NCBI GenBank assembly: GCA_963716145.1
Contig: OY970292.1
Location: 822,528-886,527 of the forward strand
Length of the DNA: 64,000 bases
DNA from: Candidatus Levyibacteriota bacterium
GTDB lineage: Bacteria; Patescibacteriota; Microgenomatia; Levybacterales; UBA12049
Direction of reading: 5' to 3'
The notes beneath the pieces were generated by a model, which was not told where the DNA came from, did not search any database, and saw only the letters and a list, made by a program, of their open reading frames with translations. This document shows, piece after piece, positions 3,444-62,967 of the stretch (its first letter is position 1; the number at the start of each line of letters is the position of its first letter). Made by a program: the position numbers and the translations under genes.

Positions 3444-4757
3444 TTAACTAAATAAATCCTTTCGTAGCTCTTCACGTTTATCATAAGAAGTAATTTCAAT
3501 CGGCTGCATTATTTGATCATTTGCGGTAATTTGGATGGAATCAAACGTGTGCTGCTTTTTTAGATCCTCAAGCGTTATTGTATATGTGCCTGAAGCAAGC
3601 GGCGTAGCAGATGCAAAATTGCCAAGTGAGTTGGTTTTAAAGGCTCTTACCGGATTACCGCTTTTGTCTTTTATTTCAACCAGAATGTTGGGTAGGACGT
3701 TTCCTCTTGCATCCTTAACCATTCCCGAAACTACATTTGGTGTATCTGATGCAAAAATTCCAAGGCGTTTGTTCATGTCTGTTGGCACGCTTCTCACATG
3801 CGGAGTTTTCGTTTCAATAGGAGTTGTTTTTGCGACATCAGTTTTTGCAGCAGGTACTGCCGGAGTAGCCTGCTGGGTTGATAATTGTTTTTTTAAGTTC
3901 ATAATTTCCTGCTCAAGTAACTGTTTTTGGGAATGAATTTCCGCAACCTGTTTTTCCAGATCTTGCGCTTTCAGGGGAGCGTCCGGAAGAATACTCGGAG
4001 ACTGAAGAGTAGCCTCTTGATGCGTTGCGAACTCTAATTGTTTTTCTAAAGCAGCTTCTTTTTCAGAAAGAATTTCAGGCGATGGTTTTACGGCCGGGAC
4101 ATTTGCGATTGGTTTATCAGAGGGCTTTGGTGATGCATTTGGCAGATTTTTAGGTAAACCGGGAGGGGTGGCTGGAAGCGTTTGGCTTTGGGGAGTTGCG
4201 ACTGGAGATGCCAGAATAGAGCTAAGAAATGCCGCTTCCCGCGCGTCTTGTGGGTTTTTTATTTTACTCTCAGAACTATTAATTAAAATTTTTTGCAATT
4301 CCCTTCCTCTCTCGTTAATCATTTTTTGCTTTGGGGTACTATGCGCATCCTGTCCTGAGCTTGTCGAAGGATGCGGTTTGGAAAGAGATATTGTTGAAAA
4401 GCTGAATTTTTTATCCATCTTGTGGTATATGTATTGATTTGGAGAGAATAAAGCTTTCATAAAATTTCCTGCCATAATGTCAATAGGTCTACCGTCAACC
4501 GGAACAAAAGCCAGGATTGGTCCGCTTGCCCCAAAAAGAGGTATAAGGAGGATTTTTAAAAAGATAGCAAGAATTCCACCAGGTAAGGGCAGATAATAGA
4601 TTATCGCAGCTCCTATGACGCCTGCCGCAACATAGCCAAACTGCTTGACAGTCATCGAGCCTATAAGCTTAAACTGAAATCCTGTTACATTTTGTGGTAT
4701 TGGGTGTTGGTCCATTGCTGATACAAAAAGTGTATAACGTGAAAAATAGCATTGCAA
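3444..4757 (-). CDS. membrane protein: N-terminal TM hairpin, Pro-rich linker, coiled coil, C-terminal beta-sandwich-like domain (VirB10-like architecture only)
   Basis: 437 aa; TM segments at about residues 40-95; PATPPGLPKNLPNASPKPSDKP Pro-rich; heptad-like QLLEQEIMNLKKQL; C-terminal GNVLPNILVEIKDKSGNPV...GTYTITLED resembles carboxypeptidase-regulatory/Big-type fold. Confidence 0.45.
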   Translation of the reverse strand: MQCYFSRYTLFVSAMDQHPIPQNVTGFQFKLIGSMTVKQFGYVAAGVIGAAIIYYLPLPGGILAIFLKILLIPLFGASGPILAFVPVDGRPIDIMAGNFMKALFSPNQYIYHKMDKKFSFSTISLSKPHPSTSSGQDAHSTPKQKMINERGRELQKILINSSESKIKNPQDAREAAFLSSILASPVATPQSQTLPATPPGLPKNLPNASPKPSDKPIANVPAVKPSPEILSEKEAALEKQLEFATHQEATLQSPSILPDAPLKAQDLEKQVAEIHSQKQLLEQEIMNLKKQLSTQQATPAVPAAKTDVAKTTPIETKTPHVRSVPTDMNKRLGIFASDTPNVVSGMVKDARGNVLPNILVEIKDKSGNPVRAFKTNSLGNFASATPLASGTYTITLEDLKKQHTFDSIQITANDQIMQPIEITSYDKREELRKDLFS

Positions 4758-5187: not shown

Positions 5188-7377
5188 TCAAAAAGAGACT
5201 TTATACAGCTTTGTGTTTTGGTTTTGGTATACAAGCGTTCCCATCTTTTGGAATTTTTGCTCAGAAAGCGTAGGGTATTTTTGCTGCTCTAAAGACCCAA
5301 TGAAAACGTACTCCACTTTATATTTTTGGAGCAAGTTCTTAGCTACTTGTAAATCCTGGGTTTCATATATGGTTTTTATTTCGTTAATTCTAGGTGCGGG
5401 AATATCATATGTTCCGCGCCAGAGCCATTCATGCACTGTCCAGCCTAGAACAGTCGGGAGGCCGGTATTTGATGATACGCGGGCAAAATCAGTGTATGAG
5501 TCGCTTTGCGCTTCAAGAATTACAGGCTGACCCGTTATGTTTTTGTTAATCCACTCAATTGCAGTATAGTCATATGGGTAGAGAGTTTTAAGATAATCAG
5601 TTCCGTCCAGACCCTTTTGTGTTTTGAGATCGCCATAATACGATTTAATCGCGAGATAAGGATAGGCCATGACGAGGGTTATTAAGCTAATAACTAATAA
5701 CAAATAACTAATAACTAATAACGTTTTTTTATAATTTATAATTTGAAATTTGAAATTTGAAATTATTCTCACGATTATGTATCCGCAGGAAAGCGAGAGC
5801 ATTATAAATGCTTGAAAAACGAGTTTAAACATCGTATTTGCCCGGTAGTGAGCCGGGTAAATGTCTTTTAGGTAAATGAATTCAGGAAGAATAATTAGAA
5901 AAGTTGAGAGAATCAAGAGCAATAATACGAATATGTCTGCCTGCAAAAACTTTTTGGCTTTCCTCATAAACAGCAAATAGGAGAAAACAAAGAAGTAGAA
6001 GAACCCATAAAGTATGAGCAATTGCCACCAATATGAATGTTGGCAATGCTTTGCTTCAAACAGAAAAGGACCGATTTTACCGATTTTATTTAAAAAATTT
6101 GGGGCGCAAAGTATGCCAATACCGGAGGCAAAGGGCTTGAAAAAGTAGCTGTAGGGCATTGAAAATACAACCAGGCTTACAAAGACTATAAAAATAGAAA
6201 AAAAGAAGTTTATTAATTTTTTAGAATAAACATAAAAAAGCACAAGCGATGCAAGAAGGAGGTAAATCCCCCCATCCCATGCATTAGTCATATACATCAC
6301 TGAAAGTAAAAACCCAATCAGGATTAGACTCGGAAAACTCGGAATACTCTGAAAACCAGACTTTCTGACTGTCAGATTTTCAGACGACCTGATATTGCTG
6401 ACGTTCTGAGTTTTCTGAGTGTTCTGGAAAAAAGCAAGTAGTACAGCAATTGTGAGCAGTACAAATGGAATATCAAGAACATGTCCGTGCAGATCCGCAA
6501 CCACCCATGAATAAATCGGAAATTCATGAATTGTGTGATCTATAAAACGAGTCGCGTTGGGGTACCAGTATGAGTTCGGGAAGCTTAAGGGTAAGAATTT
6601 AAGCTGCCATAAAGGGACAGGATGCTCGGCTGTGTAGGGTTTGAAAAAAGCATAAAGAATGTGTAGATTTCCTGCAAAAGTGACAAGGCTGGCTGTTAAA
6701 AATCCTGCAGCAAAGTTTTTGATGCCAGCTATTTTTTTGTTTTTTTGCATAAGGGCATAAAGATTTGCGCCTAGAGAAAAGGCTTCTGTAAAGCAGAATG
6801 CAAAAATTGTGGAAAGCATGAGATTGAATGTAATTTTGGAAGGAATGTCTGATAATCTGGTCAATACAGCTGTAGCCAAGTGACCAAAGTAATAATAATT
6901 GATAAAAAACGGAGTAAACCACATGTCTTTTGGGGGGAAGTAGTCCGCTCTAAGAATTGAGTTTATAAATCCAAAATCCATATATTTTTCAAGCCCATGA
7001 ATCTCAGGATTAAAAGAATGAATATATGCCCAGAAAAATAGACTAAGCAGGAATAGTATTTCTTCAAAAAGCAATAGCTTCCAGTTAAGTTTTAGGATTT
7101 GTAGGGTTTTTGACCTCAATGGGATCAGTATGAAAAGCAGTATTGCAAGAAAAATAAAAATAAGAAAGGAGAAGAATTGAGTAAATGGGGTTAGATGCAA
7201 AACCCCAAAAATAAAAATCGCGTAAGACGTAAAAGCAATGCCGAGTATTTTTGAGAAAATATATCCGCGGTCAAAAAACTTTTCAAACAGGAAAAATGTT
7301 AGCGGCAAAAATCCGGTTTCCAACATTAAGATAGTTAACCACCATTGTAAAACTGAGTGAATATCGGAAGGAAGCAT
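5188..7377 (-). CDS. large polytopic membrane protein, DUF2298/GT-C-like (possible oligosaccharyl/glycosyl transferase)
   Basis: 729 aa, more than 12 predicted TM helices plus a C-terminal soluble domain; contains in-frame heptamer repeats (TAATAAC x5, AATTTGA x3.5). Confidence 0.4.
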   Translation of the reverse strand: MLPSDIHSVLQWWLTILMLETGFLPLTFFLFEKFFDRGYIFSKILGIAFTSYAIFIFGVLHLTPFTQFFSFLIFIFLAILLFILIPLRSKTLQILKLNWKLLLFEEILFLLSLFFWAYIHSFNPEIHGLEKYMDFGFINSILRADYFPPKDMWFTPFFINYYYFGHLATAVLTRLSDIPSKITFNLMLSTIFAFCFTEAFSLGANLYALMQKNKKIAGIKNFAAGFLTASLVTFAGNLHILYAFFKPYTAEHPVPLWQLKFLPLSFPNSYWYPNATRFIDHTIHEFPIYSWVVADLHGHVLDIPFVLLTIAVLLAFFQNTQKTQNVSNIRSSENLTVRKSGFQSIPSFPSLILIGFLLSVMYMTNAWDGGIYLLLASLVLFYVYSKKLINFFFSIFIVFVSLVVFSMPYSYFFKPFASGIGILCAPNFLNKIGKIGPFLFEAKHCQHSYWWQLLILYGFFYFFVFSYLLFMRKAKKFLQADIFVLLLLILSTFLIILPEFIYLKDIYPAHYRANTMFKLVFQAFIMLSLSCGYIIVRIISNFKFQIINYKKTLLVISYLLLVISLITLVMAYPYLAIKSYYGDLKTQKGLDGTDYLKTLYPYDYTAIEWINKNITGQPVILEAQSDSYTDFARVSSNTGLPTVLGWTVHEWLWRGTYDIPAPRINEIKTIYETQDLQVAKNLLQKYKVEYVFIGSLEQQKYPTLSEQKFQKMGTLVYQNQNTKLYKVSF
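5690..5765. repeat. two heptanucleotide tandem repeat tracts inside CDS 5188..7377: (TAATAAC)x5 (one variant unit) and (AATTTGA)x3.5
   Basis: direct reading: ctaataactaataacaaataactaataactaataac ... aatttgaaatttgaaatttgaaatt; encodes LLVISYLLLVISL and NFKFQI on the minus strand. Confidence 0.8.
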
Positions 7378-9538: not shown

Positions 9539-10581
9539 AGTTTGGAAACAAGATTTAGTATCTTAAAATTCCATCCAACCCGATGTGTGTTGCCGGTGCG
9601 ACCCAGGACATTTTTTCTATTTTGTTTATACCACAGGTAGCTTTCCAGGAACAAATCCTGATTGGATTTTTTTGGAGCCCACTTTAGTAATTTTCTGGCT
9701 TTTTCGATTGAAACATAAGAGTCAACAGGCATAGTTTTGTAATGCCAGGCTGCAATTGGCGAGAGGTTAAGCACCTCAAGTATTTGGAGAATAAGTTGAG
9801 AAGGCAGGGTTGGAAGGGAGGTAATTTTTGATTTTGATTTTGCATGTTTTATAACGTGCCCCAAGTCAGATCTCCAAGTCCCAAATCTTTCAGCGCCAAT
9901 ATTAAAGATCTCACCACTTACTCGGGTTGTCAGCGCTTTTTCTATAGCTGACACAACATCTGTGACAGCAAGCAATTGGTATTTATTGTTTCCAGGGCCC
10001 AAAATAAACACCCGTTTATTGTTGAAAATCGCCTCAAACCATAATTCAAAAACTCCAAGCCGCTCAGTTCCCAAAAAAGTCTTCGGACGAATAACGTTTA
10101 CCTGAAGGCCCTTTTTTTGATATTCCATACATAGTTTTTCCCCTTCGATTTTTGAAATTCCGTAATTTCCTATCGGGTCAAGAGGGGCGGTTTCTGTCTC
10201 AGGAAGATGCTTTGGTACGCCGTAAACTGCGGTTGAGGAGATAAAAACAAGACGCTTTACTTTATTTTTAAGCGCTGAGGCTAGAACATTTTTTGTACCT
10301 TCAATATTTACGCTAAATATCACTTTCTTATCAACCTGAATAGGAAGCGCTGCTGCCGCGTGAACTACATAATTTTGGCCGACTAAAGCCTTATCAACTG
10401 TTTTAATATTCCGTATATCACCAATTATAACTTTCACCTTACCAATTAAATCTTTTGCGTCCAAGTCTGCCAAGTCAAAAAGCGTAACATTGTAGTTTTT
10501 CTTGAGAAGAAATCTTGCCAGATGTACTCCCAAAAAACCGGTTCCGCCTGTAATGAGCACCTTTTTTACCATAGAATACAT
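9535..10581 (-). CDS. NAD-dependent epimerase/dehydratase (SDR family; UDP-sugar 4-epimerase-like)
   Basis: 348 aa; N-terminal Rossmann motif VLITGGTGFLGVHL; 4-nt overlap with the upstream GT gene. Confidence 0.8.
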   Translation of the reverse strand: MYSMVKKVLITGGTGFLGVHLARFLLKKNYNVTLFDLADLDAKDLIGKVKVIIGDIRNIKTVDKALVGQNYVVHAAAALPIQVDKKVIFSVNIEGTKNVLASALKNKVKRLVFISSTAVYGVPKHLPETETAPLDPIGNYGISKIEGEKLCMEYQKKGLQVNVIRPKTFLGTERLGVFELWFEAIFNNKRVFILGPGNNKYQLLAVTDVVSAIEKALTTRVSGEIFNIGAERFGTWRSDLGHVIKHAKSKSKITSLPTLPSQLILQILEVLNLSPIAAWHYKTMPVDSYVSIEKARKLLKWAPKKSNQDLFLESYLWYKQNRKNVLGRTGNTHRVGWNFKILNLVSKL

Positions 10582-10590
10582 TCTACTATG

Positions 10591-12285
10591 TCAGCGTGTT
10601 TTTTGAAAGATCATGATTTTTGGGTGATCAAAGACTGTGAAATTCTCATCAGCCGACTGATCGACAAGCGGAGTGTTGAGAATCGGGGTAGTTGGGAAAG
10701 ATGTAAATTCGGCAACTTTTTGGAAACCTAATTCTCCCGAAAATAATTTTTTGTAATAATTCGCTGTTTGCGGGTAGCATCTAAATGTGGGCAAGCGTTG
10801 GCAATCGGTTAATTTTTGAAGAGGCGTATATAGTCTGTTTGAGGCAATAACTATATAGTCGGTTTGAGCAAGCTGGTTATTTATTTCATTCCACTTTTCC
10901 TTTGTGTCAGGGTCGTAAAGTTTTAGAACTTGAGTGTTAAATTTTGGCGGTTGTCCCATTGGAAGCTGATCATCCCAATGCTCAACTGCCAGTGTTTTAT
11001 TTGTCGGAATATTATTGTAGATCCAGTTAGATGCGACAAGTCGTGTGTTGGGTTTTGTGTAAATCCGTATAAAGCTGATTGGCCAGATTAGGCAGGAAGT
11101 AAGAAGTAAGAAGTAAGAAGTAAGAATAATAGGTTTTAATTTGATTTTTTCCATAAATTTATAAACCATTACAGCTGCAAAAAGGGCAAAAAGAGGGTAT
11201 ACAGGAAGCATATAGCGCATAAATCCAACAGCAAATTTCCCAACTATAGAAACGTATATACAGAAAAAAACCAATATAATTAATTCTTTCCCAATTTGGG
11301 AAGACTTTTCTTTTTTGAAGATTAAATAAGTAAAATAAATAAATCCTAAAAACGCAAGTGCTGCAATTAAGGGGCCTAGTCCCCAAAGAAAAATATTTTT
11401 GAACTCATAGACATAAGGGATTTTACCTACAAATTGAAGCGTATACGGAAAGAAAAAAGGATTAATTGTGAGCGCAGATTGTTGAACAGTTTGCTGCCAA
11501 AAAGTGTCAAAATCAATCGCTGCATAAGGTTCCATAAACACAAACGTAAGCAGAGTGGATAGTCCTATTACAAATGCGTATTCCAGCAGATGCCTAATGG
11601 ATTTTGGCAAATGAGGTAGCCAGTGTTTAGGTCTATGCGGATTTTTTAAAAATATCAGAATAAAATCAGAAGTTAGCGCCAGGCCTATTGAAGCTAGCAA
11701 AACGCTTGCGCTTATTTTTGTGGCAAGCGCGAGACCAAAGAATAAGCCTATGACAACTGCGGTTTTAAGAGTGGGTTTTTCATAAAACCTGAGTAGGTTA
11801 TAGAGGGTTGCAAGGATAAAACAGGTTAAAAGTGTATCTACCGCATAGAAATGGGAAAGCTGAATTGGTAGAACGCTAACCGCGTAAAAAAATGCGCTTA
11901 TCAGGCCTACTGAGGAATTAAAAAGTTTACGGGCGATTTTAAAAAGTAGAATAATCGTAATAAGATCTGCAAAAGCAGATAAAACCCTTCCTAAAAGATT
12001 GATATTGCCATATTGTCCAAGAAATGGGTCGAAGACTGCCAGAGTGTTTCCTGTGACCCTTAAGAGGTACATGGGAAAGGATCCATAAGCAAAAAAATGC
12101 GGGTTCCAAGAGCTTTGGGGAGACAAGAATTCGGAAACACTAGTTGGAAATTTCAATTTATCAATTGTTGCGGTAATTGCCCGCTCATCCGGGTGCAAAT
12201 GAAATCCCTGGTCCCAATTAACATTATAAAGCCTAAGAAATGCAGCAAAAATAATAATGATGAATAAAATAATTTTAGTTTTCAT
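10591..12285 (-). CDS. GT-C fold membrane glycosyltransferase, ArnT/PMT-like (paralog A)
   Basis: 564 aa polytopic; first loop LRLYNVNWDQGFHLHPDERAI matches the D/E loop motif of lipid-carrier-dependent GTs; C-terminal soluble domain; (GAAGTAA)x4 in frame. Confidence 0.55.
   Translation of the reverse strand: MKTKIILFIIIIFAAFLRLYNVNWDQGFHLHPDERAITATIDKLKFPTSVSEFLSPQSSWNPHFFAYGSFPMYLLRVTGNTLAVFDPFLGQYGNINLLGRVLSAFADLITIILLFKIARKLFNSSVGLISAFFYAVSVLPIQLSHFYAVDTLLTCFILATLYNLLRFYEKPTLKTAVVIGLFFGLALATKISASVLLASIGLALTSDFILIFLKNPHRPKHWLPHLPKSIRHLLEYAFVIGLSTLLTFVFMEPYAAIDFDTFWQQTVQQSALTINPFFFPYTLQFVGKIPYVYEFKNIFLWGLGPLIAALAFLGFIYFTYLIFKKEKSSQIGKELIILVFFCIYVSIVGKFAVGFMRYMLPVYPLFALFAAVMVYKFMEKIKLKPIILTSYFLLLTSCLIWPISFIRIYTKPNTRLVASNWIYNNIPTNKTLAVEHWDDQLPMGQPPKFNTQVLKLYDPDTKEKWNEINNQLAQTDYIVIASNRLYTPLQKLTDCQRLPTFRCYPQTANYYKKLFSGELGFQKVAEFTSFPTTPILNTPLVDQSADENFTVFDHPKIMIFQKTR
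11096..11123. repeat. (GAAGTAA)x4 heptanucleotide tandem repeat inside CDS 10591..12285
   Basis: ggaagtaagaagtaagaagtaagaagtaagaat; encodes LLTSYFLLLTS on the minus strand. Confidence 0.85.
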
Positions 12286-13886: not shown

Positions 13887-15587
13887 TTAGCGTAGTTTTT
13901 TGAAGATAAATACTGTCGGGCGTTCAAAAACGGAAGCTGTTTCTTCAAAGCTAAAAACAGGATTGCCAAGGTAAGTAATATTGCAAAAAATATCACAAGG
14001 CGTTTCATAGATTTTTTGATAACCTGCTGCTTCCTTGGTTAGCAAAGAATAAAAACCGTAACCTTTTGGAAATTTACTAGCATTTAGCAGCCGGGATCTT
14101 AAAAGTCGCTGGCTGGGAAGAATAATATAGTCGGATTGCGATAGCTTTGTGCTTAATTCTTTGTCCAAAGAAGCTCTTCCAGGATCAAGATCATAAAAAT
14201 TGAAATCATGGATGTTTAAGAGGTGAGAATTAAAAGGTATGATTCCCAGGTCATAAGGTTCAGTTAAAATTGTAGCTGATTGTGCAATATTATTTTGGGA
14301 AAATTTACTTGCCGCTATTCTAGTATCAGGTTGCACAAAAGCGGTTATGAAATAGGACATTGAAAATATTACGCTTGTAAGCGTAAAAATACTTAATACT
14401 AAATACTCGCCTCGCGCCAGCGTCGACGCCAGGCGCGGCGAAGCGGGCTTAATACTAAATACTTTCTTGAAACTCTGCAGAAAGTCTGAAACAAAAATAG
14501 AGACTATTAAATAAACAAAAGGTAGGGTGGGCACCATGTATCGTGTCCATTTCGCATATAGAAATGCCTGGGGGAGGAAAAGAAGTAAGAAGTAAGAAGT
14601 AAGAAGTAAGAATGGCTGATTCTTTGTTTTTATTGCTTTATAAACCAAATAGAAAAAAGCCGGGACCAAAACGGCTGTCAGTACTGGGTTTATGAGAAAG
14701 GGAAGAATATGTAGGAACTGAAAAATAACAGGAGGCGTGTTGTAAAAAGATTGAGTGTAGAAAACCGGCGTTATTCCTGCTACCAAACTTCTTTCATAAA
14801 ATAAGGCAGCTCTGAACTCAGGCGCCAGATAATTTGGTGAGAAAAGAGCTGTTAAAGAAATTAGAAGCAGCATTCCCAATATTGAGTGTTTTGATATTGG
14901 GAGTAAGTTGGATTTTTGTTTTTTTATACTTGTGAGCAATATGGCAACTGGGAAAATTGCTAAAATCAGAAGATTTATCTTGGCTGCAGCCCCTATCGCC
15001 AGAAATAAAATTGAAATGTAGTAATTGATAATTCTTTTTGTTCTCAAAAATCTTAGAATAAAATAAAAAACAGTTATCGCACAAAATGCTCCAAGCCCGT
15101 CATAGGTTCCAAAATGGGCTTGCTGGATCAACCCGGTTGAAAAAACGGAAAGAAATAAAGCAAGTAAAGCCACTTTTTGCGACCAAAACTTTCCGCAAAG
15201 ATAGATTACATAAATGGTAAGTATAGAAAACACAGCAGAAATAGTGCGTAGAATAATTGCAGTTTGTGCGAACGCATCCGTAAGCTTAAATACCTGAAAA
15301 GACAGCAGGAATAGCGGTTTTAGTAAAAGAGTGAGTATTACCGGAAAATTACCGTAGGCAAATGTTCCTTTCAAAAGCGTTTCGGGATTTGCCAAAGATG
15401 ATTTTAGAACAAGGTCCACGATATTCCGCTCATCAGGGTGAAAATAAAAAGGCGAACCCCAATTTAGATTATAAAAACGGAGAAACGCTCCAATCAAAAT
15501 AAGGGATGCTATCAAAAGTTTTACTTTATGTGTTTTTAACAAATGGGACACAATGTTAATTGTAATAGCTTTGGCCACCGTTGACAA
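13887..15587 (-). CDS. GT-C fold membrane glycosyltransferase, ArnT/PMT-like (paralog B)
   Basis: 566 aa; LRFYNLNWGSPFYFHPDERNIV loop motif as in 10591..12285; similar C-terminal end (..IFxKxR); (GAAGTAA)x4 in frame. Confidence 0.55.
   Translation of the reverse strand: MSTVAKAITINIVSHLLKTHKVKLLIASLILIGAFLRFYNLNWGSPFYFHPDERNIVDLVLKSSLANPETLLKGTFAYGNFPVILTLLLKPLFLLSFQVFKLTDAFAQTAIILRTISAVFSILTIYVIYLCGKFWSQKVALLALFLSVFSTGLIQQAHFGTYDGLGAFCAITVFYFILRFLRTKRIINYYISILFLAIGAAAKINLLILAIFPVAILLTSIKKQKSNLLPISKHSILGMLLLISLTALFSPNYLAPEFRAALFYERSLVAGITPVFYTQSFYNTPPVIFQFLHILPFLINPVLTAVLVPAFFYLVYKAIKTKNQPFLLLTSYFLLLFLPQAFLYAKWTRYMVPTLPFVYLIVSIFVSDFLQSFKKVFSIKPASPRLASTLARGEYLVLSIFTLTSVIFSMSYFITAFVQPDTRIAASKFSQNNIAQSATILTEPYDLGIIPFNSHLLNIHDFNFYDLDPGRASLDKELSTKLSQSDYIILPSQRLLRSRLLNASKFPKGYGFYSLLTKEAAGYQKIYETPCDIFCNITYLGNPVFSFEETASVFERPTVFIFKKLR
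14582..14609. repeat. (GAAGTAA)x4 heptanucleotide tandem repeat inside CDS 13887..15587
   Basis: gaagtaagaagtaagaagtaagaagtaagaatgg; encodes LLLTSYFLLL. Confidence 0.85.
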
Positions 15588-15948: not shown

Positions 15949-17235
<1,287 letters not shown>

Positions 17236-27600: not shown

Positions 27601-28420
27601 GACAAGTTTAAAGTTAAAAGTTAAAAGTTCAAAAGTAGTTAAAAAACCAGCTAAGGCGCCTAAAGTTCTTCTTAAAAAAGAAGCGTTAAAGGTCGTAAAG
27701 TCTGGCGAAGCTAGATCCCGCTCCGCGGGACAAAAGACCGTTTCAAAAACTGTTAAAGCAGAATCTATTAATCTAACAGTCAGCGTTTATGGCTTGGACG
27801 GCAAAGTTAGCGGAAAAGTATCTTTGCCAAAAGAAATTTTTGGAGAGATAGTTAATAAAAAACTTTTGGCACAAGCTGTACGGGTTTACCAAGCAAACAA
27901 AAGACAAGGAAATGCAAATACCAAAACCCGGGGAGAAGTAGACGGATCAACTAGGAAGATTTACAAACAAAAAGGAACGGGAAAAGCACGACACGGCTCG
28001 GTTCGTGCCCCTATATTTGTAAAAGGTGGAATAGTTCATGGCCCAAGAGTTCGTGATTTTGGCCTTGAATTACCCAAAAAAATGAAGAGAAAAGCGCTCT
28101 TTTCCGCCCTTTCGGCAAAATTGCAGGATGGAGAAGTAAAAGTTCTTTCAGGTCTTGAAAAAATTACACCTAAAACTAAACAATTTGCAGCTGTCATAGA
28201 AAAATTAGCATTTGAAGGAAATAATAAAAAATTGCTTTTAGTTGCGCCTGATAATTTTGACAACGCGAAGCGGGCATCGCGCAATCTTACAGGCATAACA
28301 AATACATCGGCTCTTAGGCTGAACGCGCTTGAGGTATTGAGTAGTAAATATCTACTTTTTACAAAAGAAGCAATTATTGAGATGGAGACGTATTTTTTGA
28401 AAAAAGGAGCAACAAAATGA
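27593..28420 (+). CDS. rplD: 50S ribosomal protein L4 with Lys-rich N-terminal extension
   Basis: ATG 27593 after aaggagga; MSKTSLKLKVKSSKVVKK...; core INLTVSVYGLDGK...YKQKGTGKARHGS is typical uL4. Confidence 0.85.
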   Translation: MSKTSLKLKVKSSKVVKKPAKAPKVLLKKEALKVVKSGEARSRSAGQKTVSKTVKAESINLTVSVYGLDGKVSGKVSLPKEIFGEIVNKKLLAQAVRVYQANKRQGNANTKTRGEVDGSTRKIYKQKGTGKARHGSVRAPIFVKGGIVHGPRVRDFGLELPKKMKRKALFSALSAKLQDGEVKVLSGLEKITPKTKQFAAVIEKLAFEGNNKKLLLVAPDNFDNAKRASRNLTGITNTSALRLNALEVLSSKYLLFTKEAIIEMETYFLKKGATK

Positions 28421-28736: not shown

Positions 28737-29488
28737 ATGAAAAAATTAAAAACAATTAAAAAAAAACATTCCGGACGCGACGCAAGCGGACAGGTATCAG
28801 TTCGTCATCAGGGCGGACAACACAAGAGATTTGTCAGGAGCATTGATTTTAAAAGAGATAAATTTGATATAGTTGGGAAAGTTTTGGGGATTGAATATGA
28901 TCCAAATAGAACTTGTGACATTGCTCTGGTTCAATACACCGATGGAGATAAGCGCTATATGTTGGCTCCACATCGGATTAAAGATAAATGATACAATAGT
29001 GTCCGGCAAGAGTGTGGATGCGGTTTTGGGTAACTCGCTTCCTCTGTCAAACATTCCGCTCGGAACAATGGTTCACAATGTTGAACTAACACCAGGCAAG
29101 GGTGGACAAATCGCAAGGAGCGCCGGGACTGGAGCAATTGTTACAGCAAAAGAAGGCGATTTCGTACATCTGAAGATGCCCTCAGGTGAAATGAGGAAAG
29201 TCCGCGTTATGGCTCATGGCAACCGTCGGACAATTGGGAAATGAGGATTGGAAAAATGAGCAATTGGGAAAAGCAGGGAGAGCCCGAAATATGGGTAGAC
29301 GCCCGACCGTCCGGGGAGTAGCGCAAAACCCAAGATCTCATCCGCATGGAGGAGGAGAAGGACGATCTGGTATCGGTATGCCCGGGCCAAAGACTTTTGC
29401 AGGAAGAGCGGCTGTAGGTAACACTCGAAAAAAGAAAAAATATTCAGATAAATATATTTTAAAGAGAAGAAAGACTAAGAGAGGATAG
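28737..29488 (+). CDS. rplB: 50S ribosomal protein L2; split into three frames by indels
   Basis: fragments 28737..28991, 28873..29244 and 29216..29488 together read as uL2 (…[44 protein letters not shown]…[26 protein letters not shown]…). Confidence 0.85.
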
Positions 29489-29515
29489 TTCGACTAGCTC
29501 ACTATAAACAAAATT

Positions 29516-30240: not shown

Positions 30241-30317
30241 GGAAAATAAATTTCAAATATCAAATTTCAAATATCAAATTTCAAATAGATTTGATAGGAA
30301 ATTGGAAATTGGAAATT
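30241..30317. repeat. intergenic tandem repeats upstream of rpsC: (AAATTTCAAATATC)x2.7 and (GGAAATT)x4
   Basis: aaatttcaaatatcaaatttcaaatatcaaatttcaaatag ... ggaaattggaaattggaaattggaaatt, directly before RBS aggagg. Confidence 0.85.
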
Positions 30318-30339
30318 GGAAATTCTCCGAAGGAGGCAT

Positions 30340-35383: not shown

Positions 35384-35821
35384 ATGAATTTAAGCAATCT
35401 TGAAAAAATAAAAGACAAAAAGAAAAAGCGAATCGGTCTTGGGCATGGATCGGGACGTGGAAAAACTGCAGGACGTGGGACAAAAGGTCAGAAAGCAAGA
35501 GGAGATGTGCCCTTGGATTTTGAAGGGGGAGCGCTTCCTCTTATCAAAAGACTTCCATTTTTGCGCGGAAAAGGAAAAAATAAATCATTTAAAAAAACAC
35601 CACTTGTTATTAATGTCAGTCTTTTAAGCAATTTTCCCAAGAACTCAGTTGTGGATATTGAGAGTCTGGTAAAACATAAACTGGTAAAGCAAGACAGTGT
35701 AAAGACAAATGGTGTTAAAATATTAGGTGATGGAGATTTGAGCGTCGCACTTACCGTTAAAGTTCCGGCGTCAAAAGGAGCAACTGAAAAAATCAAAAAA
35801 GCGGGCGGATCAGTAATTTAA
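35384..35821 (+). CDS. rplO: 50S ribosomal protein L15 (follows rpsE directly; no L30 gene)
   Basis: 145 aa; [23 protein letters not shown]. Confidence 0.9.
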
Positions 35822-37110
35822 TGGACAGTTTTATAAAAACTCTTCAAAGCAGCTTTAAGTCACCTGAGGTAAGAAAAAAAATCCTTTTCACTCTTGGGAT
35901 CTTCTTAGTATTTAGATTTTTAGCACACGTTCCTGTGGCCGGAGTCAACGTGGCACAGCTTAAAAATCTTTTTGCGGGCAATCAATTTTTGGGGCTTTTA
36001 GATATATTTTCAGGCGGAACCCTTGGTAACTTTTCAATAATGGCACTTGGTTTAAATCCGTATATCAACGCTTCAATCATACTCCAACTGCTGACAATGG
36101 TATTCCCAAAACTTGAAGAACTCTCAAAAGAAGGCGCATCAGGACAGCGCAAGATCAATCAGTACACCAGGTTTTTGACAATTCCGCTTGCGTCTTTGCA
36201 GGCAATTGGTATGTACGCACTCTTAAGAAGTCAGGGAATTATCGCAACACTGTCTCCTATTGCAACTATTTCATTCATCGTTACAATGGTAGCCGGTACT
36301 ATGTTTCTGGTTTGGCTTGGGGAACTTATTACCGAGCGCGGAGTGGGAAATGGTATTTCTCTTATGATTTTTGCCGGAATTGTAGGCCGCTTTCCTGTGC
36401 TCTTGGGGCAAACCCTTTCAACTGCCACACCTGAGTCGACCTCTAATATTATAACCTTTCTTGTGCTTGGGTTGGTAGTTATAGCGGCAGTAATTGTCAT
36501 GACTGAGGCAACGCGTCAGGTCACAGTTTTTTATGCCAAAAGAGTACGGGGAAATAAGATGCAAGGGGGAGAGTCAACTCATCTGCCGCTTCGCTTAAAT
36601 CAAGCAGGAGTAATTCCGATCATTTTTGCAGTCTCCATTGTACTTCTACCCTCCCTTCTTGCTAATTTTTTTCAAGCTTCAAAAAACCCTGTACTTTCAG
36701 GTTTTGCGCAAAACGTAAGTATTTGGTTTGCTCCGTCCAGTATTGCCTACAATTTGTTATATTTTCTTTTGGTTGTTGGGTTCACTTTTTTCTATACGGC
36801 AATTGTTTTTAACCCCAAAAAGATTTCAGAGGAAATACAAAAACACGGCGGTTTTATACCAGGAATCAGGCCCGGTACGCCCACTACCAAATACCTCAAT
36901 TATATTTTAACCAGAATTACGCTGGTTGGCGCCAGCTTTTTGGGACTCGTCGCGATATTGCCTGAATTGGCGCGTGTTATAACCGGTGTTCAGACGCTTC
37001 TTCTTGGAGGAACAAGTATTTTGATTGTTGTCAGTGTTGTTCTTGAGACTTTTAAAAAAATTGAGGCAAACCTTGTAATGCGTAATTACGAAAGTTTCCT
37101 TAACAAATAA
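35821..37110 (+). CDS. secY: preprotein translocase subunit SecY
   Basis: 429 aa, 10 TM helices, typical N-terminus. Confidence 0.95.
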
Positions 37111-37134
37111 TCCTTCGACAAGCTCAGGATAAAT

Positions 37135-38396: not shown

Positions 38397-39185
38397 ATGA
38401 TTAATATTAAAACAAACCAAGAAGTAGAAATAATGCAAATAGGCGGGCGGATTTTGGCTGAGACGCTGTCTGAAGTTATGGATTCAATAAAATCGGGCGT
38501 TACCGAGTTGGAACTTGATCAGTTAGCCGAGAAGTTAATAAGGGAAAAAGGTGGAGAACCAGGGTTTAAAAAAGTAAAAGGATATCATCACACAATTTGT
38601 ATGTCTACAAATGATGCAGTTGTTCATGGAATTCCAGGGAGCTATGAGTTTAAAGAAGGAGATGTTGTAGGGGTTGACTGTGGCGTTTTTTATAAGGGAT
38701 TTCATACGGATATGGCAGAAACTAAAATAGTTCAAAGTTCATCCATTCGGCAAGCTCAGGACGCGAAGTTCAAAGTTCAAAGTTCGGTTGAAAAGTTTTT
38801 GGAAGTTGGGAAACAAGCATTGGAAGAAGGTATTAAGCAAGCTGTTGTTGGTAATAGGGTTGGGCATATTTCAAAAACAATTCAGGATATTGTTGAAAAA
38901 GAGGCTGGATATTCAGTTGTCAGAAGTTTAATAGGGCACGGTGTTGGGCGGGAACTTCATGAAGAACCGGAAGTGCCAGGATATTTGGTGGGTAAAATTG
39001 AGAAAACACCGTTCTTGAGAGAAGGTATGACAATTGCTATCGAAGTGATTTATAACATGGGTTCAAAAGATGTTGTTTTGGATCATGACGGCTGGACAAT
39101 TCGCTCAAAAGACGGCAGTCTGGCGGGATTATTTGAGCGGTCAATCGCCATCACACAATCAGGTCCAATTGTATTAACAAGCTGA
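38397..39185 (+). CDS. map: methionine aminopeptidase type I, carrying a 15-codon in-frame insertion (38743-38787)
   Basis: 262 aa; metal ligands D..D..H..E..E in order (VDCGVFYKGFHTD, GHGVGRELHEEP, IAIEV). Confidence 0.9.
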   Translation: MINIKTNQEVEIMQIGGRILAETLSEVMDSIKSGVTELELDQLAEKLIREKGGEPGFKKVKGYHHTICMSTNDAVVHGIPGSYEFKEGDVVGVDCGVFYKGFHTDMAETKIVQSSSIRQAQDAKFKVQSSVEKFLEVGKQALEEGIKQAVVGNRVGHISKTIQDIVEKEAGYSVVRSLIGHGVGRELHEEPEVPGYLVGKIEKTPFLREGMTIAIEVIYNMGSKDVVLDHDGWTIRSKDGSLAGLFERSIAITQSGPIVLTS

Positions 39186-39622: not shown

Positions 39623-40030
39623 ATGCGTATTTCAAGTGTTACAATACCGGACAATAAAAGAGTTGATATTGCATTGACTTATATCTATGGAATAGGCCGA
39701 AGCAATGTTTCCCTTGTCCTAAAAAATTCTAAAATTGAGGCTTCCAAAAAAGCAAAAGATCTAACGGAAGAAGAAATAAAGCGGATCACAAAAATTCTGG
39801 AAACGTACAAAATCGAGGGAGATTTAAGAGCAGATGTGGCTTCAGACATAAGACGTCTTAAAGAGTCAGGTAGTTATCGAGGAATCCGTCACACCAGAGG
39901 TTTGCCATCCCGCGGACAGCGTACCCGCTCAAATGCCAGAACTAAAAGAGGTAAGAGAGTAACAATCGGAGCGATTAAAAAAGAAGTTGCAGCAAAGATG
40001 GATGTAGCAGCAAAAGCAAAGGGAAAATAA
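39623..40030 (+). CDS. rpsM: 30S ribosomal protein S13
   Basis: 135 aa typical uS13. Confidence 0.9.
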   Translation: MRISSVTIPDNKRVDIALTYIYGIGRSNVSLVLKNSKIEASKKAKDLTEEEIKRITKILETYKIEGDLRADVASDIRRLKESGSYRGIRHTRGLPSRGQRTRSNARTKRGKRVTIGAIKKEVAAKMDVAAKAKGK

Positions 40031-42025: not shown

Positions 42026-42158
42026 GTAAGTCCTAAATTCTAATATCGAAATACTAAACAAATCCAAATTCTAAAATTAAATAAAGTTTTAGATTTGTAA
42101 TTAGGATTTTAAAAATTGTTTAGGATTTGGAATTTAGTGTTTGGGATTTTTATTTATT

Positions 42159-42740
42159 ATGAAGAAGCATGTTTTCGGCCGAAAATTTAAGAGAGACGCC
42201 AATGAGCGAAAAGCCTTATTTAAAAACCTGCTTACATCTCTTGTTTTGGAAGAACGCATCAAGACAACCGAGGCAAAAGCAAAGGCTATCAAGGGTGCAG
42301 CGGATAAGTTAATCACAAAAGCCAAAAAAGAGGGAGTTAATGTTTACAAAAGTCTGCACCCAGACATAAATCAGGAGGCAGTCCTTAAATTAATGTCCGA
42401 GATTGCCCCGCGTTTTGCAGGAAGACAGGGAGGATATACTAGAATTATAAAGGTTGGGAAAAGACGCGTCGCGGACAACGCGGAAATGGTGTATTTGGAG
42501 TGGACGGAACGGAGTTCAGAAGTAAGAGTTAAGAATTCAGAATTGCCGAAAAAAGCTAAGAAAAACAAGCCGGCTTCGTCAAAGAAAGCTACGGAAAAGG
42601 TTAAGAAGGTAACTAAAATAGAAGCGCCCGCGCCAAACGCGGTTATTGCAAAACCTGTAATAGGTAAAAAAGTTGAGGAAAAAGTTCAAAAGCAAGGAAT
42701 ATTCAAAAGGTTGGTAACAAGACAGAAAAAAGGACAATAG
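42159..42740 (+). CDS. rplQ: 50S ribosomal protein L17 with Lys-rich C-terminal extension
   Basis: MKKHVFGRKFKRDANERKALFKNLLTSLVLEERIKTT... Confidence 0.85.
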   Translation: MKKHVFGRKFKRDANERKALFKNLLTSLVLEERIKTTEAKAKAIKGAADKLITKAKKEGVNVYKSLHPDINQEAVLKLMSEIAPRFAGRQGGYTRIIKVGKRRVADNAEMVYLEWTERSSEVRVKNSELPKKAKKNKPASSKKATEKVKKVTKIEAPAPNAVIAKPVIGKKVEEKVQKQGIFKRLVTRQKKGQ

Positions 42741-42766
42741 TTCGGCAAGCTCACTATAAATAAAAT

Positions 42767-43207
42767 ATGAATCAAGCAAGTATAACAACAGCTACAAAAG
42801 TATCGGATATTAAGCGTTCATGGCACTTTGTTGATGTAAAAGGTAAGGTGTTAGGGCGTATTTCGACCGACATAGCAAAGCTTTTGATGGGCAAGAACGA
42901 AGCCTATTTTGTACGCAATCTTGATTGCGGAAATTTTGTGGTGGTTGTCAACGCAAAGGACATTAAAGTAACAGGCAACAAAGAAGAACAGAAAAATTAT
43001 TACAGACACTCAGGATATCCGGGAGGTTTTAGGCAGGAGACACTTCAGGAACTAAGAGTGCGAAAGCCTGAAGAAATTGTAATTCGTGCCGTAAAAGGAA
43101 TGCTTCCGCAAAACAAATTGCGAGACAAAATGCTAAAAAGACTTTTTGTTTTTGCAGGCGAAGAACACAAGTATGCTGATAAATTTGGAAAAAACGTATC
43201 AGCATAA
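42767..43207 (+). CDS. rplM: 50S ribosomal protein L13
   Basis: 146 aa typical uL13. Confidence 0.9.
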   Translation: MNQASITTATKVSDIKRSWHFVDVKGKVLGRISTDIAKLLMGKNEAYFVRNLDCGNFVVVVNAKDIKVTGNKEEQKNYYRHSGYPGGFRQETLQELRVRKPEEIVIRAVKGMLPQNKLRDKMLKRLFVFAGEEHKYADKFGKNVSA

Positions 43208-49618: not shown

Positions 49619-49699
49619 TTTGAAGCAAAGAATTGAATAGAGATCGGTAAGAGAACTATAAGATAAAAGTTAGTTTCCTTCGACAGGCTCAGGACTTAG

Positions 49700-58235: not shown

Positions 58236-58459
58236 TTTTTTTAATCTAAATTTCTTCTAAAATATTTTCTCCCACGCGCACTCTTGTCCGCCTCTGGCGG
58301 AAGACCACCCCGCCAAAGGCGGGCAGGTATGCGACCCTTCCATTTCAAAACTATTATATAAGGTAAATGTCAAGCGATTTAGCTCGAAATTTCCTATACT
58401 TGTCTGGTAATTATACCTGATTAGTTTCATATTTGCATAAAAGGGAGGGAGGATATAAA

Positions 58460-60544: not shown

Positions 60545-61570
60545 ATGATAATTCGTCCCATAACTTCTTCTGAAAAAAAACAGTTCAATGCTGTGGTAGG
60601 TCATCCGCTTCAATCTTATGAATGGGGGGAGTTCCGGGAGAAAACAGGGGTAAAAGTGATTAGGCAAGGTTTTTTCACTAAGGAAAATATGACTTCAGGT
60701 TTTCAGCTAACTATTCATCCCATTCCGCATTCTCCTTTTACAATCGGATATTTACCCAAAGGTGAGTTGCCGGGCAAAGAGCTATTGAAAGAGTTGAAAA
60801 AAATCGGCAAAGAAGAAAAATGTATTTTTATCCAACTCGAGCCAAATGTTATTGCTTCGCAAATTTCAAATTTCAAATTTCAAATTTCAAATTTAGAGCT
60901 TCGGCAGGCCGCGCATCCGCTTTTTACAAAATATAATTTTGTTTTGGATATTACCAAATCCGAAGACGAGCTCCTCAAAAATATGCATCAAAAAGCCAGG
61001 TACAATATAAAAGTTGCGCAAAAAAACGGAGTCGCGGTAGTTGAAGATAATTCGAAAAAAGCCTTCGAGGCATACTTGAAATTAACCCATGAAACAACAG
61101 AAAGACAGAAATTTTATGCGCACACAGAAGAGTATCACAAGAAAATGTGGGGAGCGCTTCAAGGTCAGAATTTGGACAAAAATAAACTAAGTGCACATTT
61201 ATTAACGGCAAAATATAAAGGAAAGATTTTAACTGCTTGGATTTTGTTTGTCTTTAAAGACACGCTTTACTATCCTTACGGTGCGTCAAGTAGTGAAAAC
61301 CGTGAAGTAATGAGCAGTAATCTGATGATGTGGGAAGCGATACGGTTTGGCAAAAAATTGGGACTTAAAAAATTTGATATGTGGGGAGCGTTGGGTCCAA
61401 ATCCTGATAAAAATGATCCATGGTATGGATTTCACAGTTTTAAGCAAAAATACGGACCTGAACACGTTGAGTACATGGGGAGTTTCGATTTGATAGTAAA
61501 TCCAGTTTCGTATAAGTTCTACAAGATAGCGGACAAACTTCGTTGGCTCATGTTAAGATTAAAGAAGTGA
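60545..61570 (+). CDS. FemAB-family aminoacyltransferase (peptidoglycan interpeptide-bridge formation)
   Basis: 341 aa; N-terminal HPLQSYEWGEFRE (FemABX QSWEW-like) and GNAT-like C-terminal half; (CAAATTT)x5 in frame at 60860-60894. Confidence 0.65.
   Translation: MIIRPITSSEKKQFNAVVGHPLQSYEWGEFREKTGVKVIRQGFFTKENMTSGFQLTIHPIPHSPFTIGYLPKGELPGKELLKELKKIGKEEKCIFIQLEPNVIASQISNFKFQISNLELRQAAHPLFTKYNFVLDITKSEDELLKNMHQKARYNIKVAQKNGVAVVEDNSKKAFEAYLKLTHETTERQKFYAHTEEYHKKMWGALQGQNLDKNKLSAHLLTAKYKGKILTAWILFVFKDTLYYPYGASSSENREVMSSNLMMWEAIRFGKKLGLKKFDMWGALGPNPDKNDPWYGFHSFKQKYGPEHVEYMGSFDLIVNPVSYKFYKIADKLRWLMLRLKK
60860..60894. repeat. (CAAATTT)x5 heptanucleotide tandem repeat inside the FemAB-family CDS
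   Basis: caaatttcaaatttcaaatttcaaatttcaaattt; encodes SQISNFKFQISNL. Confidence 0.85.
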
Positions 61571-62967
61571 AGACGAAGCATTTTGTCCCAATAGCAATTT
61601 TATTACTAATTTTCTTCATTTTTAAATTAACAAATTTTGGCATAAGACTTTCTGACTCAAATATATATTTTTACACCGGATACAAAATTCTTCAAGGGGA
61701 AATTTTGTATAGGGATATCTTTTTTACCAACTTTCCGCTTCTTCCATATATTTCCTCGATTTATTTTTTGCTAACAGCCGGTAATCTGAAATTATTTTTT
61801 TTGACTCCGACAATTGAAGTCTGCACTATCGCATTCTTAATTTACCAAATCACATATAAAAATAATAAAGATATTTTTTTGGCATTAACATCAAGCATTC
61901 TTTATCTTTTTTCATTTATAATTCTCTCAACATCTGATCATCAATCCGGCGTTTTCATCGCCTCACTTTTTGCGTTATTGAGTTATTATTTTTATCTCAA
62001 TAAAAGACATTTATTAACAGGTATTTTTATAGCCCTGGCGCTTTTGACGAAAGTTTATTTTATACCGATACTGCTTACATATCTCGCTATTTTTATCTGG
62101 CCCGCTTCGCCGGAGCTTCAGCGAGGCGAGGAGCAAAAGTTTAAAAATTTACAGCGGTTTTTAATTGGGGGAGTAATTACGAGTTTAATTATATTACTTC
62201 CGACTGTTATTTTTGCATTCCCAGATTTTATAAAAGATGTTTTTGCATACTCACTGACAAGGTCCCAGGGAGTTGAAAAAAGCGCGATTGCTTGGTTTTT
62301 TGTGACTCATGATTTCCCGCTTTTTATTCTTCTTTTATTCAATTTGCTGATGATTATAAAAAATAAGTTTTTTGGTTTACTTTCTTTGTTTGGGATTTTA
62401 TTCCTCTTTCTTTATAAAGATATTTATTTTTTATATCTTAATTTTTTCGTACCATTTCTCGCTCTCTCTTATTCTGAATTTCACAAAACAATACAGAAAA
62501 ATTTTGGAGTCCAAAAATTTATCATTCCTACAATTATATTTTGTTTTTTAATTTTCAGTTTTGTAACTTATGTAACCGGTTTTAAAAATCTGCAAAAAAT
62601 AAATCCGGATCGGGCAGTTGCAATAATTAAAAAGGAGCAGCCGAAATTTTTATACGGGGTGAACGATATAACGCCTGCTTTATCCTATTTAAGCGGCATC
62701 CCGCTTTTGGGAAATGTGATTGATACCAATTCCAATATTTACAGAAAAGGATTTCTCAATAGCAAAAAAATGACAGAAGATGTTGTGGAGCAAAAATCAA
62801 TTATCGTAACGCATGGCTTGTATTATCCTGATGCAGGAGTTAATGAAGAAGTGGTTGATGAAATTTTTGATAAATCCCAAATAAAAAAATCCTGTAGATT
62901 AATTGGAAGTTTTCCGGTGCAGATGGAGGGTCCGGAAAACCGTTTGAATCTTTTGAAATGTTATTAA
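61543..62967 (+). CDS. polytopic membrane protein, GT-C-like glycosyltransferase candidate
   Basis: 474 aa; more than 10 TM helices; C-terminal soluble domain; 28-nt overlap with the FemAB gene. Confidence 0.4.
   Translation: MAHVKIKEVKTKHFVPIAILLLIFFIFKLTNFGIRLSDSNIYFYTGYKILQGEILYRDIFFTNFPLLPYISSIYFLLTAGNLKLFFLTPTIEVCTIAFLIYQITYKNNKDIFLALTSSILYLFSFIILSTSDHQSGVFIASLFALLSYYFYLNKRHLLTGIFIALALLTKVYFIPILLTYLAIFIWPASPELQRGEEQKFKNLQRFLIGGVITSLIILLPTVIFAFPDFIKDVFAYSLTRSQGVEKSAIAWFFVTHDFPLFILLLFNLLMIIKNKFFGLLSLFGILFLFLYKDIYFLYLNFFVPFLALSYSEFHKTIQKNFGVQKFIIPTIIFCFLIFSFVTYVTGFKNLQKINPDRAVAIIKKEQPKFLYGVNDITPALSYLSGIPLLGNVIDTNSNIYRKGFLNSKKMTEDVVEQKSIIVTHGLYYPDAGVNEEVVDEIFDKSQIKKSCRLIGSFPVQMEGPENRLNLLKCY

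Follow-up and report, generated by a model that had tools for sequence, protein, structure and literature searches.

How a GC-rich block of a kind that recurs between genes came to lie, in frame, inside a conserved enzyme gene is the question raised by map, the methionine aminopeptidase gene of an AT-rich (40% GC), 64-kb stretch of Levybacterial DNA (hereafter the window, the whole stretch examined from the source genome). A sequence-only reading of the locus had proposed a 45-nt insertion of a miniature element flanked by direct repeats. The window was compared with 80 related genomic loci (designated L001, L004 and so on; 1.38 Mb in all), nearly all labelled Candidatus Levybacteria / Levyibacteriota or Patescibacteria, in which genes were called as simple longest open reading frames (ORFs). 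The source organism is accordingly a Levybacterium and belongs to the Candidate Phyla Radiation (CPR) of ultra-small bacteria. The block at 38742-38765 is probably a copy of a dispersed micro-element, similar to the repetitive extragenic palindromes (REPs), which was inserted into a pre-existing array of 7-nt units in an expanded surface loop of the protein. The features concerned are as follows.

38397..39185, plus strand: map, type I methionine aminopeptidase (MAP), 262 aa, the host gene (ORF; PF00557 homologs, database protein P0001, solved-structure matches and AlphaFold2 model)
38730..38741, plus strand: left array half, GTTCAAA GTTCA, identical in insert-free relatives
38742..38765, plus strand: inserted block TCCATTCGGCAAGCTCAGGACGCG, 24 nt, encoding S116-A123 (SIRQAQDA); a clean 24-column gap in L083, L001, L039 and L004
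38766..38785, plus strand: right array half, AA GTTCAAA GTTCAAA GTTC, which with the left half makes up the uninterrupted array of L039 and L083

Alignment of the window DNA with L083, L001, L039 and L004 gave one clean gap, with the block placed between GTTCA and AAGTTC. The boundaries of the block were unique and the gap could not slide; nothing was therefore duplicated, and there is no target-site duplication (TSD). The insert-free relatives carried the same (GTTCAAA)n array, equal in total length and uninterrupted (~4.7 units), which encodes VQSSKFKVQSS. When 120 homologs were aligned, the window protein had IVQSS-SIRQAQDA-KFKVQSS against IVQSS-KFKVQSS in its nearest relatives; SIRQAQDA was present in the window protein alone, the nearest homologs having QSSKFKVQSS. 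These comparisons support the view that a sequence recurring between genes was inserted into map recently, in frame and as a discrete block, which every closer relative found lacks. The size of 45 nt given by the sequence-only reading has to be reduced to a single block of 24 nt (8 aa) with respect to the closest relatives, at 80-85% protein identity, and the 'extra 7-mer' that it described is part of the heptanucleotide array that encodes QSSKFKVQSS in these relatives. The presence or absence polymorphism for which it had proposed to compare related map genes was found, for 24 nt and not for 45. The contrary outcome that it had named, a loop shared by all relatives, applies to the array portion but fails for the 24-nt block.

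A second insertion of exactly 24 nt was verified in methionyl-tRNA synthetase (MetRS). The MetRS proteins of L207 and L299 share 94% identity, and their genes are set apart by exactly the 24 nt TCCATTCGGCAAGCTCAGGACAAG, whose boundaries are again unique. Both genes contain the array, which was absent from MetRS at 79% identity or less. The map loop itself was occupied in three lineages, in three reading frames and within three different arrays. Besides the window, L081 carries the 24-mer ATCCATTCGGCAAGCTCAGGACGC (window 38741-38764, starting one base upstream of the block) inside a GAGAAAA array, in the frame NPFGKLRT, and L082 carries a variant of the motif inside an AAGATCA array, in the frame YSAGSGQA. 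The insertions of the window and L081 were inferred to be independent from their frame, array unit and phylogenetic distance; common descent would require many losses and a frame change. At this place in the MAP loop, other relatives (L017, L018, L029, L032 and L052) had GC-rich blocks, 30-45 nt long, that are unrelated to the motif.

The direct repeats noted earlier are real. The quoted string is present at 38726-38788, and the window has three exact occurrences of AGTTCAAAGTTC, at 38729, 38767 and 38774, and no others. The repeats stand on either side of the GC-rich block, in frame and at a distance of 45 nt, and in other composites the repeats on the two sides are spaced by 36 or 45 nt, as would be expected of a 45-nt miniature transposable element that made a 12-nt TSD of AGTTCAAAGTTC on insertion. 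This explanation is nevertheless very unlikely, as the block-free relatives hold both 'repeat' copies as one continuous array of equal length, and the L207/L299 MetRS pair has the array alike with and without the block. The repeats are thus a pre-existing array and not a TSD. The block also lacks terminal inverted repeats beyond the 3 complementary bp of TCC/GGA, and at 24 nt it falls short of the 50-500 bp of MITEs (miniature inverted-repeat transposable elements), which it resembles in being small, multi-copy and non-autonomous.

The MAP loop was hypervariable in length and sequence across Levybacteria. Basal relatives had a short loop with no repeat, and in many Levybacterial lineages the loop was made up of about four tandem 7-nt units, the unit being specific to the lineage (GTTCAAA, ATTCAAA, ACTCAAA, AGTCAAA, ATCTCAA, GAGAACG, CCAAGAA, GCAGATG and others). 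In both map and MetRS, the order of events was from no array to array to hairpin, which favours the view that the arrays served as landing pads over their being footprints or parts of the element. Arrays of this period were over-represented, in line with the map flanks being a heptanucleotide simple sequence repeat of the short tandemly repeated repetitive (STRR) type. The window contained six perfect arrays of at least three copies at period 7, with none at periods 5, 6 and 8-15 and none in shuffled sequence, and across all loci the count was 83 at period 7, compared with 11 for period 6 and 3 for period 8. The mapped arrays of the window were the following.

5685..5722, 5740..5764, 11094..11126, 14580..14612, 16519..16555, 27604..27629, 30294..30324 and 60860..60894: heptanucleotide arrays, perfect or near-perfect, 3.6-5.3 copies, with a different unit in each

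Seven of these eight arrays lie inside ORFs, and Pfam named six of the hosts: a DUF2298 protein, two PMT_2 glycosyltransferases, an amine-oxidase-type flavoprotein, the N-terminal extension of ribosomal protein L4, and FemAB. A crude test of GC-rich islands against period-7 arrays found no enrichment (5 observed, 6 expected, with a noisy definition that gave 770 islands). The GC block at window 60895-60922, directly after the (CAAATTT)5 array, was judged to be native FemAB coding sequence and not a hairpin.

Two other relationships between array and hairpin were considered. That the flanking heptamers travel with the hairpin was weakened by the HMG-CoA reductase of L029, in which the flanks are native-length sequence, and by the presence of hairpin-free arrays in relatives of map and MetRS. 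That the arrays are excision footprints of a transposon with a 7-bp TSD was disfavoured by parsimony, the arrays being widespread and the hairpins found at the tips only; moreover, the units of hairpin-free arrays were far more diverse than the AAANNTC units that flank hairpins. In the ribosomal-operon loci, copies of the motif were array-flanked only in map, and arrays are therefore not intrinsic to every copy.

The block belongs to a dispersed motif. In the window and the 1.38 Mb of related loci, the motif consists of a conserved 13-nt core or loop, TTCGRCARGCTCA, bracketed by variable complementary bases. The stems covary (TCC/GGA, CCC/GGG, TAG/CTA, TAC/GTA, up to tatgaccc/gggtcata), and Levybacterial copies take the form aTCC(A)-13-nt loop-GGA(C/T). 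In map, the anatomy is a 3-bp TCC/GGA stem with a bulged A, the 13-nt loop TTCGGCAAGCTCA and a 3-nt tail. The claim that a recurring motif lies in the MAP loop was borne out, since ATTCGGCAAGCTCAGGA had 5 matches at up to 3 mismatches in the window against 0.13 expected by chance. Six copies were counted in the window, and about 30 in the related loci. The five copies of the window other than that in map are listed below.

4345..4374, minus strand: long-stem copy (GCATCCT...AGGATGC) inside the PrgI-family gene 3444-4757 (Pfam), sense, encoding HPSTSSGQDAH
29485..29505, plus strand: intergenic copy ATAG-TTCGACTAGCTCA-CTAT, the TAG stop of the upstream ORF forming the 5' stem
37110..37130, plus strand: intergenic copy ATCC-TTCGACAAGCTCA-GGAT, between the stop of ORF 35821-37110 and the start of adk
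42737..42757, plus strand: intergenic copy ATAG-TTCGGCAAGCTCA-CTAT at the end of rplQ (L17), the TAG stop forming the 5' stem; a compensatory stem variant
49676..49694, plus strand: intergenic copy TCC-TTCGACAGGCTCA-GGA, antisense to both flanking genes

The majority of copies from the sampled loci were intergenic and in the sense orientation, usually starting 0-3 nt past a stop codon and ending 8-25 nt before the next start. Any given junction held the motif in few of the 80 loci (at most about 10%), and this patchy occurrence resembles sporadic gain and loss more than the pattern of a conserved regulatory site. Long-stem copies folded well (-12 to -13 kcal/mol), among them the PrgI copy at -12.8 kcal/mol (z -3.0). 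Homologs of the PrgI-family protein are of equal length at the site of the copy (e.g. P0122, HTNVQTGQDAH), so that a patch of sequence seems to have been replaced here rather than a copy inserted. A protein from an independent Logan assembly (P0121) was 100% identical to the PrgI-family protein of the window, and the same species therefore exists in another sample. In L077 (~7503, minus strand), a copy of the motif lies directly downstream of the tRNA-3'-end-like sequence GGTTCAATTCCCCGCTCCCC, and the motif thus also borders RNA genes.

The exact 21-mer was used as the query of a metagenome scan and matched at least 120 contigs. Among the matches listed, period-7 flanks were found in 35 of 105 distinct contexts of the motif, and the array-flanked contexts were nearly all sense and within long ORFs. 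Hosts of the array-embedded block included ArgRS, an Ile/Val-type aminoacyl-tRNA synthetase, MetRS, CysRS, RecJ, HMG-CoA reductase and a DUF2298 protein. The position of insertion within the heptamer was fixed. Relative to the unit AAANNTC, the three bases before the block were T (28/35), C (26/35) and A (34/35), and the first base after it was A in 35/35 of the contexts listed; this TCA^AA phase is that of the window junction, GTTCA^AAGTTC. The element is a discrete 24-nt unit of whole-codon length, set on a fixed strand and at a fixed phase relative to the heptamer unit. In several loci the motif was also translated within the tails or loops of ribosomal proteins L17, L22, S5, S13 and L13. 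Two to three tandem copies lengthen the C-terminal tail of S13 by ~28 aa in one case (L012, 11785-11840), and one copy lies in an internal loop of L17 in another (L002, 15343).

Ordinary lineage-specific growth of the loop, through slippage and point mutations that happened to yield something like the intergenic motif, would be in keeping with the hypervariable MAP loop. It is the least credible of the explanations weighed here, as the L081 map gene has an identical 24-mer that overlaps 23 of the 24 inserted bases in another frame, and both the number of metagenome contigs with the exact 21-mer and the excess of motif matches in the window stand against coincidence.

A GC-rich hairpin between matching codons also recalls translational bypassing, of which phage T4 gene 60 and the yeast mitochondrial byps are examples. 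In map, a GC-rich block lies in an AT-rich ORF with identical codons (GTT CAA AGT TC) 45 nt apart in the same frame, which could serve as take-off and landing sites, and bypass elements are mobile (10.1101/2022.08.31.505936). A 'byp'-like element is however highly improbable here. Both verified insertions are exactly 24 nt, no stop codon follows the take-off site, and the relatives translate the array without any hairpin; bypassed gaps are free of the multiple-of-three rule and usually have a stop after the take-off site. Moreover, nearly all composites among the matches listed lie in long ORFs, and the ten array-flanked contexts that were checked (by Pfam or by eye) all kept an open frame across the block, a property that would be unnecessary for a bypassed gap.

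The hairpin could alternatively be a functional cis-acting RNA element, such as a processing, stability or translation signal, selected at this position in the spc-operon mRNA. This would be consistent with the strong sense bias (~26 of 31 good copies were sense and about 5 antisense, and the intragenic copies were all sense), with the typical site between a stop and the next start, and with a loop that is conserved while the stems covary. Furthermore, GC skew was positive along the entire window, but the copy at 4345-4374 lies on the minus strand in the sense direction of its gene, which is also on the minus strand; the orientation therefore tracks transcription and not replication. Such a role is unlikely for the copy in map, since the block was present in only 3 of ~200 map genes, any junction was occupied in a small minority of loci, and the map copy is mid-gene, with no downstream start codon and a weak stem. 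Rfam 15 also gave no match at the motif positions, either for the whole window at the gathering threshold or for the map region and three long-stem copies at E<=10 or E<=1.

The protein that received the block was otherwise normal. The window MAP was 100% identical to a database protein (P0001) from a 1.14-Mb contig, the next relatives being at 80-85% identity, and matched solved structures at E=5.6e-47. Its loop between the second Asp ligand and the next helix is 12 residues longer than in the solved MAPs 1o0x and 3tb5, within the 12-15 residues that had been estimated from E. coli MAP, and the peptide ...IVQSSSIRQAQDAKFKVQSS... was as described. The five metal ligands (D94, D105, H181, E216 and E247) were all invariant in a 55-sequence MAP alignment, in agreement with the earlier statement that the catalytic residues are intact. 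In the AlphaFold2 model (mean pLDDT 90.7, with pLDDT the per-residue confidence score), a normal pita-bread fold was predicted, with residues 112-122 as coil and a helix following at 123-147; the mean pLDDT was 68 over 111-120 and 62 over 121-130. The placement of the insert in a loop was thus upheld by the model. The 24 nt keep the frame and the catalytic core of MAP is untouched, and the block is probably a passenger that map tolerates, not a functional component of it.

The events at map and their order are shown by these comparisons as two steps. A (GTTCAAA)n heptamer array formed first and already encoded the expanded surface loop of MAP. A 24-nt hairpin copy was then inserted into the array, in the sense orientation and without target duplication, and is translated as SIRQAQDA. 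The most likely means of copying, put forward tentatively, is templated copying from another array-embedded copy, by template switching during replication or by short-patch conversion, for which the heptamer units on both sides would supply homology. The arrays would provide 10-14 nt of near-identity on both sides and be inherently prone to slippage. In some contexts (L193, L255, L261 and L263), the hairpin-adjacent units were unlike the outer units and close to the common AAAAGTC(A) or TCA, and such donor-like units fit a co-transfer of donor flanks. The PrgI copy, which replaced sequence without a change in length, was also counted toward templated copying. Nearly as likely, by analogy and itself a doubtful route, would be a dedicated single-strand transposase that recognises the hairpin (RAYT or IS200-IS605 type). 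An enzyme of this kind would equally give strand-specific insertion without a TSD, and would in addition explain the conserved loop.

Several observations weigh against the insertion of a dispersed element by array-to-array copying. No donor copy with GTTCAAA flanks was present in the 64-kb window, and no mobilising enzyme was identified there, although no transposase search was made. Most intergenic copies lack array flanks, and array-to-array copying therefore cannot explain the whole family. The absence of a length difference at the PrgI copy means that not every copy is a simple insertion. The map copy folds only to a weak hairpin. The window and L081 blocks share an unusual tail, GGACGC, which could mean common descent. 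Finally, that the loop is conserved across phyla may point to a trans-acting factor or a function.

This conservation extends well beyond the Levybacteria. The same loop with a longer stem (cGTCC...GGACGaacgg) was found in viral or metagenomic contigs of 32-71% GC, and the motif is therefore not confined to the CPR. In high-GC relatives, the starting bases cGTCC are paired within the stem. In the viral contigs L084-L178 (e.g. L127 at 8662, L106 and L085), the loop TTCGACAAGCTCA was accompanied by a 9-10-bp stem, CCGTTCRTCC...GGACGAACGG, often followed by a T-run. Translations of the FDKLRTNG or VRPELVEG type are common in hypothetical proteins of metagenome-assembled genomes. In the literature searched, the motif DNA/RNA string and its typical translations (VRPELVEG, FDKLRANG and others) were not found, nor was any description of a CPR-associated REP or MITE of this kind. 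The motif forms a cross-phylum hairpin family with no Rfam model.

The nearest known kinds are the intragenic REPs and the Rickettsia palindromic elements, and the element stands outside the REP superfamilies and the MITEs. The Rickettsia palindromic elements were reportedly described by Ogata et al. in 2000 as selfish and surface-exposed sequences lying in frame in essential genes whose function is kept. They are mentioned in PMC3733652 and PMC10969869. RPE-1 is likewise a palindromic repeat in frame in an essential gene, at a surface-exposed position. It differs in size (about 100-150 bp, against 24 nt here), in sequence and in being found in Rickettsia only, whereas the present loop occurs in contigs of widely differing GC content. 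With the GTAG- or CGTC-tagged REPs (Di Nocera et al. 2013, PMC3733652), the element shares its nature as a small, multi-copy hairpin repeat of 20-40 bp, mostly intergenic by the 3' ends of ORFs and plausibly transcribed, which sometimes supplies a TAG stop and sometimes lies in frame in genes, including tRNA synthetases and repair genes. REPs have conserved stems of 8-9 bp, loops of 4-5 nt and an unpaired GTAG or CGTC tag (PMC3733652). The present element has a variable stem of 3-8 bp and a conserved 13-nt loop, is untagged in its Levybacterial copies and sense-biased, and its intragenic copies lie at a fixed phase inside heptanucleotide arrays.

The arrays themselves recall the heptanucleotide repeats of cyanobacteria (STRR), which are tandem 7-nt arrays; period-7 enrichment is found in many bacteria and is attributed to polymerase slippage. 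Heptamer over-representation was reported by Mrazek et al. (2007), as cited in a passage of PMC4692102. Compared with STRR, the present arrays are mostly inside ORFs, have about 3.6-5.3 copies (preserving the frame) and locus- or lineage-specific units, and serve as insertion sites for GC-rich hairpins. With the 'peel and paste' systems of the IS200/IS605-RAYT type, the element would have in common hairpin-defined ends, the lack of target duplication and strand-specific insertion beside a short target, here TCA^AA. The known mobile units of these systems have two hairpin ends and at least ~100 nt, so that the likeness is a mechanistic analogy only.

A wider proposal can be advanced with some reserve. 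A sequence-defined 24-nt element may insert strand-specifically, without target duplication and always as whole codons, at TCA^AA in heptamer arrays, so that any frame of landing leaves it translated, and may in this way have colonised essential CPR genes (MAP, four aminoacyl-tRNA synthetases, RecJ, HMG-CoA reductase and ribosomal protein tails), with the conservation of its loop over 32-71% GC implying an undescribed shared recognition machinery or RNA function. If true, few discrete mobile DNA units so far described would be as small. The map locus itself shows a way in which essential and conserved enzymes in the streamlined CPR genomes gain surface-loop residues in two steps, by a slippage array and subsequent capture of a hairpin, and this route would explain many of the odd 'SGQA / RQAQD / FGKLRT' peptides in CPR protein predictions. 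For annotation, such blocks are to be treated as real in-frame insertions and not as assembly errors. The presence/absence pairs in map and MetRS offer a tractable case for the study of a TSD-less, phase-specific insertion mechanism.

The neighbourhood of map in the window is a ribosomal-protein spc/alpha gene run, in the order ORF 35821-37110, adk, cmk, map, infA, an ORF at 39623, ORF 42141-42740 and an ORF at 42767. The first of these is SecY by synteny with L082 and L083 (from the Pfam names of the syntenic genes), and ORF 42141-42740 is rplQ (L17) by Pfam.

Other GC-rich mini-hairpins were observed. In L029, a 39-nt hairpin, CCCACTTCGTCCCGCTCAGCGGGACTTCG(A/C)GGGGCAAGC, was present in both map and the HMG-CoA reductase gene of one genome (10357-10396 and 19373-19411). 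In L192 and L233, the corresponding loop of HMG-CoA reductase (GPLK...IPLATTEG) carries the TTCGGCAAGCTCA hairpin instead of the 39-nt hairpin of L029; two element families have entered the same protein site. The map loop of L052 has a second GC block (10397-10435), which contained 30 nt that were 100% identical, on the reverse strand, to L029 1732-1761 from a different genome, which suggests further mini-element families common to Levybacteria.

In the window, a different GC-rich hairpin of 42 nt, CCCGCTTCGCCGCGCCTGGCGTCGACGCTGGCGCGAGGCGAG, was found in frame at 14403-14453, in a minus-strand gene of the PMT_2 family (13887-15587). An identical 14-nt pair of heptamers (TATTTAG TATTAAG) stands on both sides of it, so that it has the array-hairpin-array arrangement of map with another hairpin family. 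Together with the 39-nt hairpin of L029, it indicates that other GC-rich mini-hairpins may act alike and that heptamer arrays may be general landing pads. Two further mini-hairpins were translated in frame, WPASPELQRGEE at 62094-62134 (ORF 61543-62967) and one encoding GEARSRSAGQK at 27704-27732 in the L4 gene (27527-28420). The latter lies ~75 nt downstream of a heptamer array, within the 97 aa that extend ribosomal protein L4 at its N-terminus. At 58285-58333, beside a tRNA cluster, there is a strong double GC hairpin between genes, CCGCCTCTGGCGG ... CCCGCCAAAGGCGGGCAGG (-32.6 kcal/mol), similar to the CCGCC...GGCGGGCAGGC blocks that L018 and L052 carry in their map loops.

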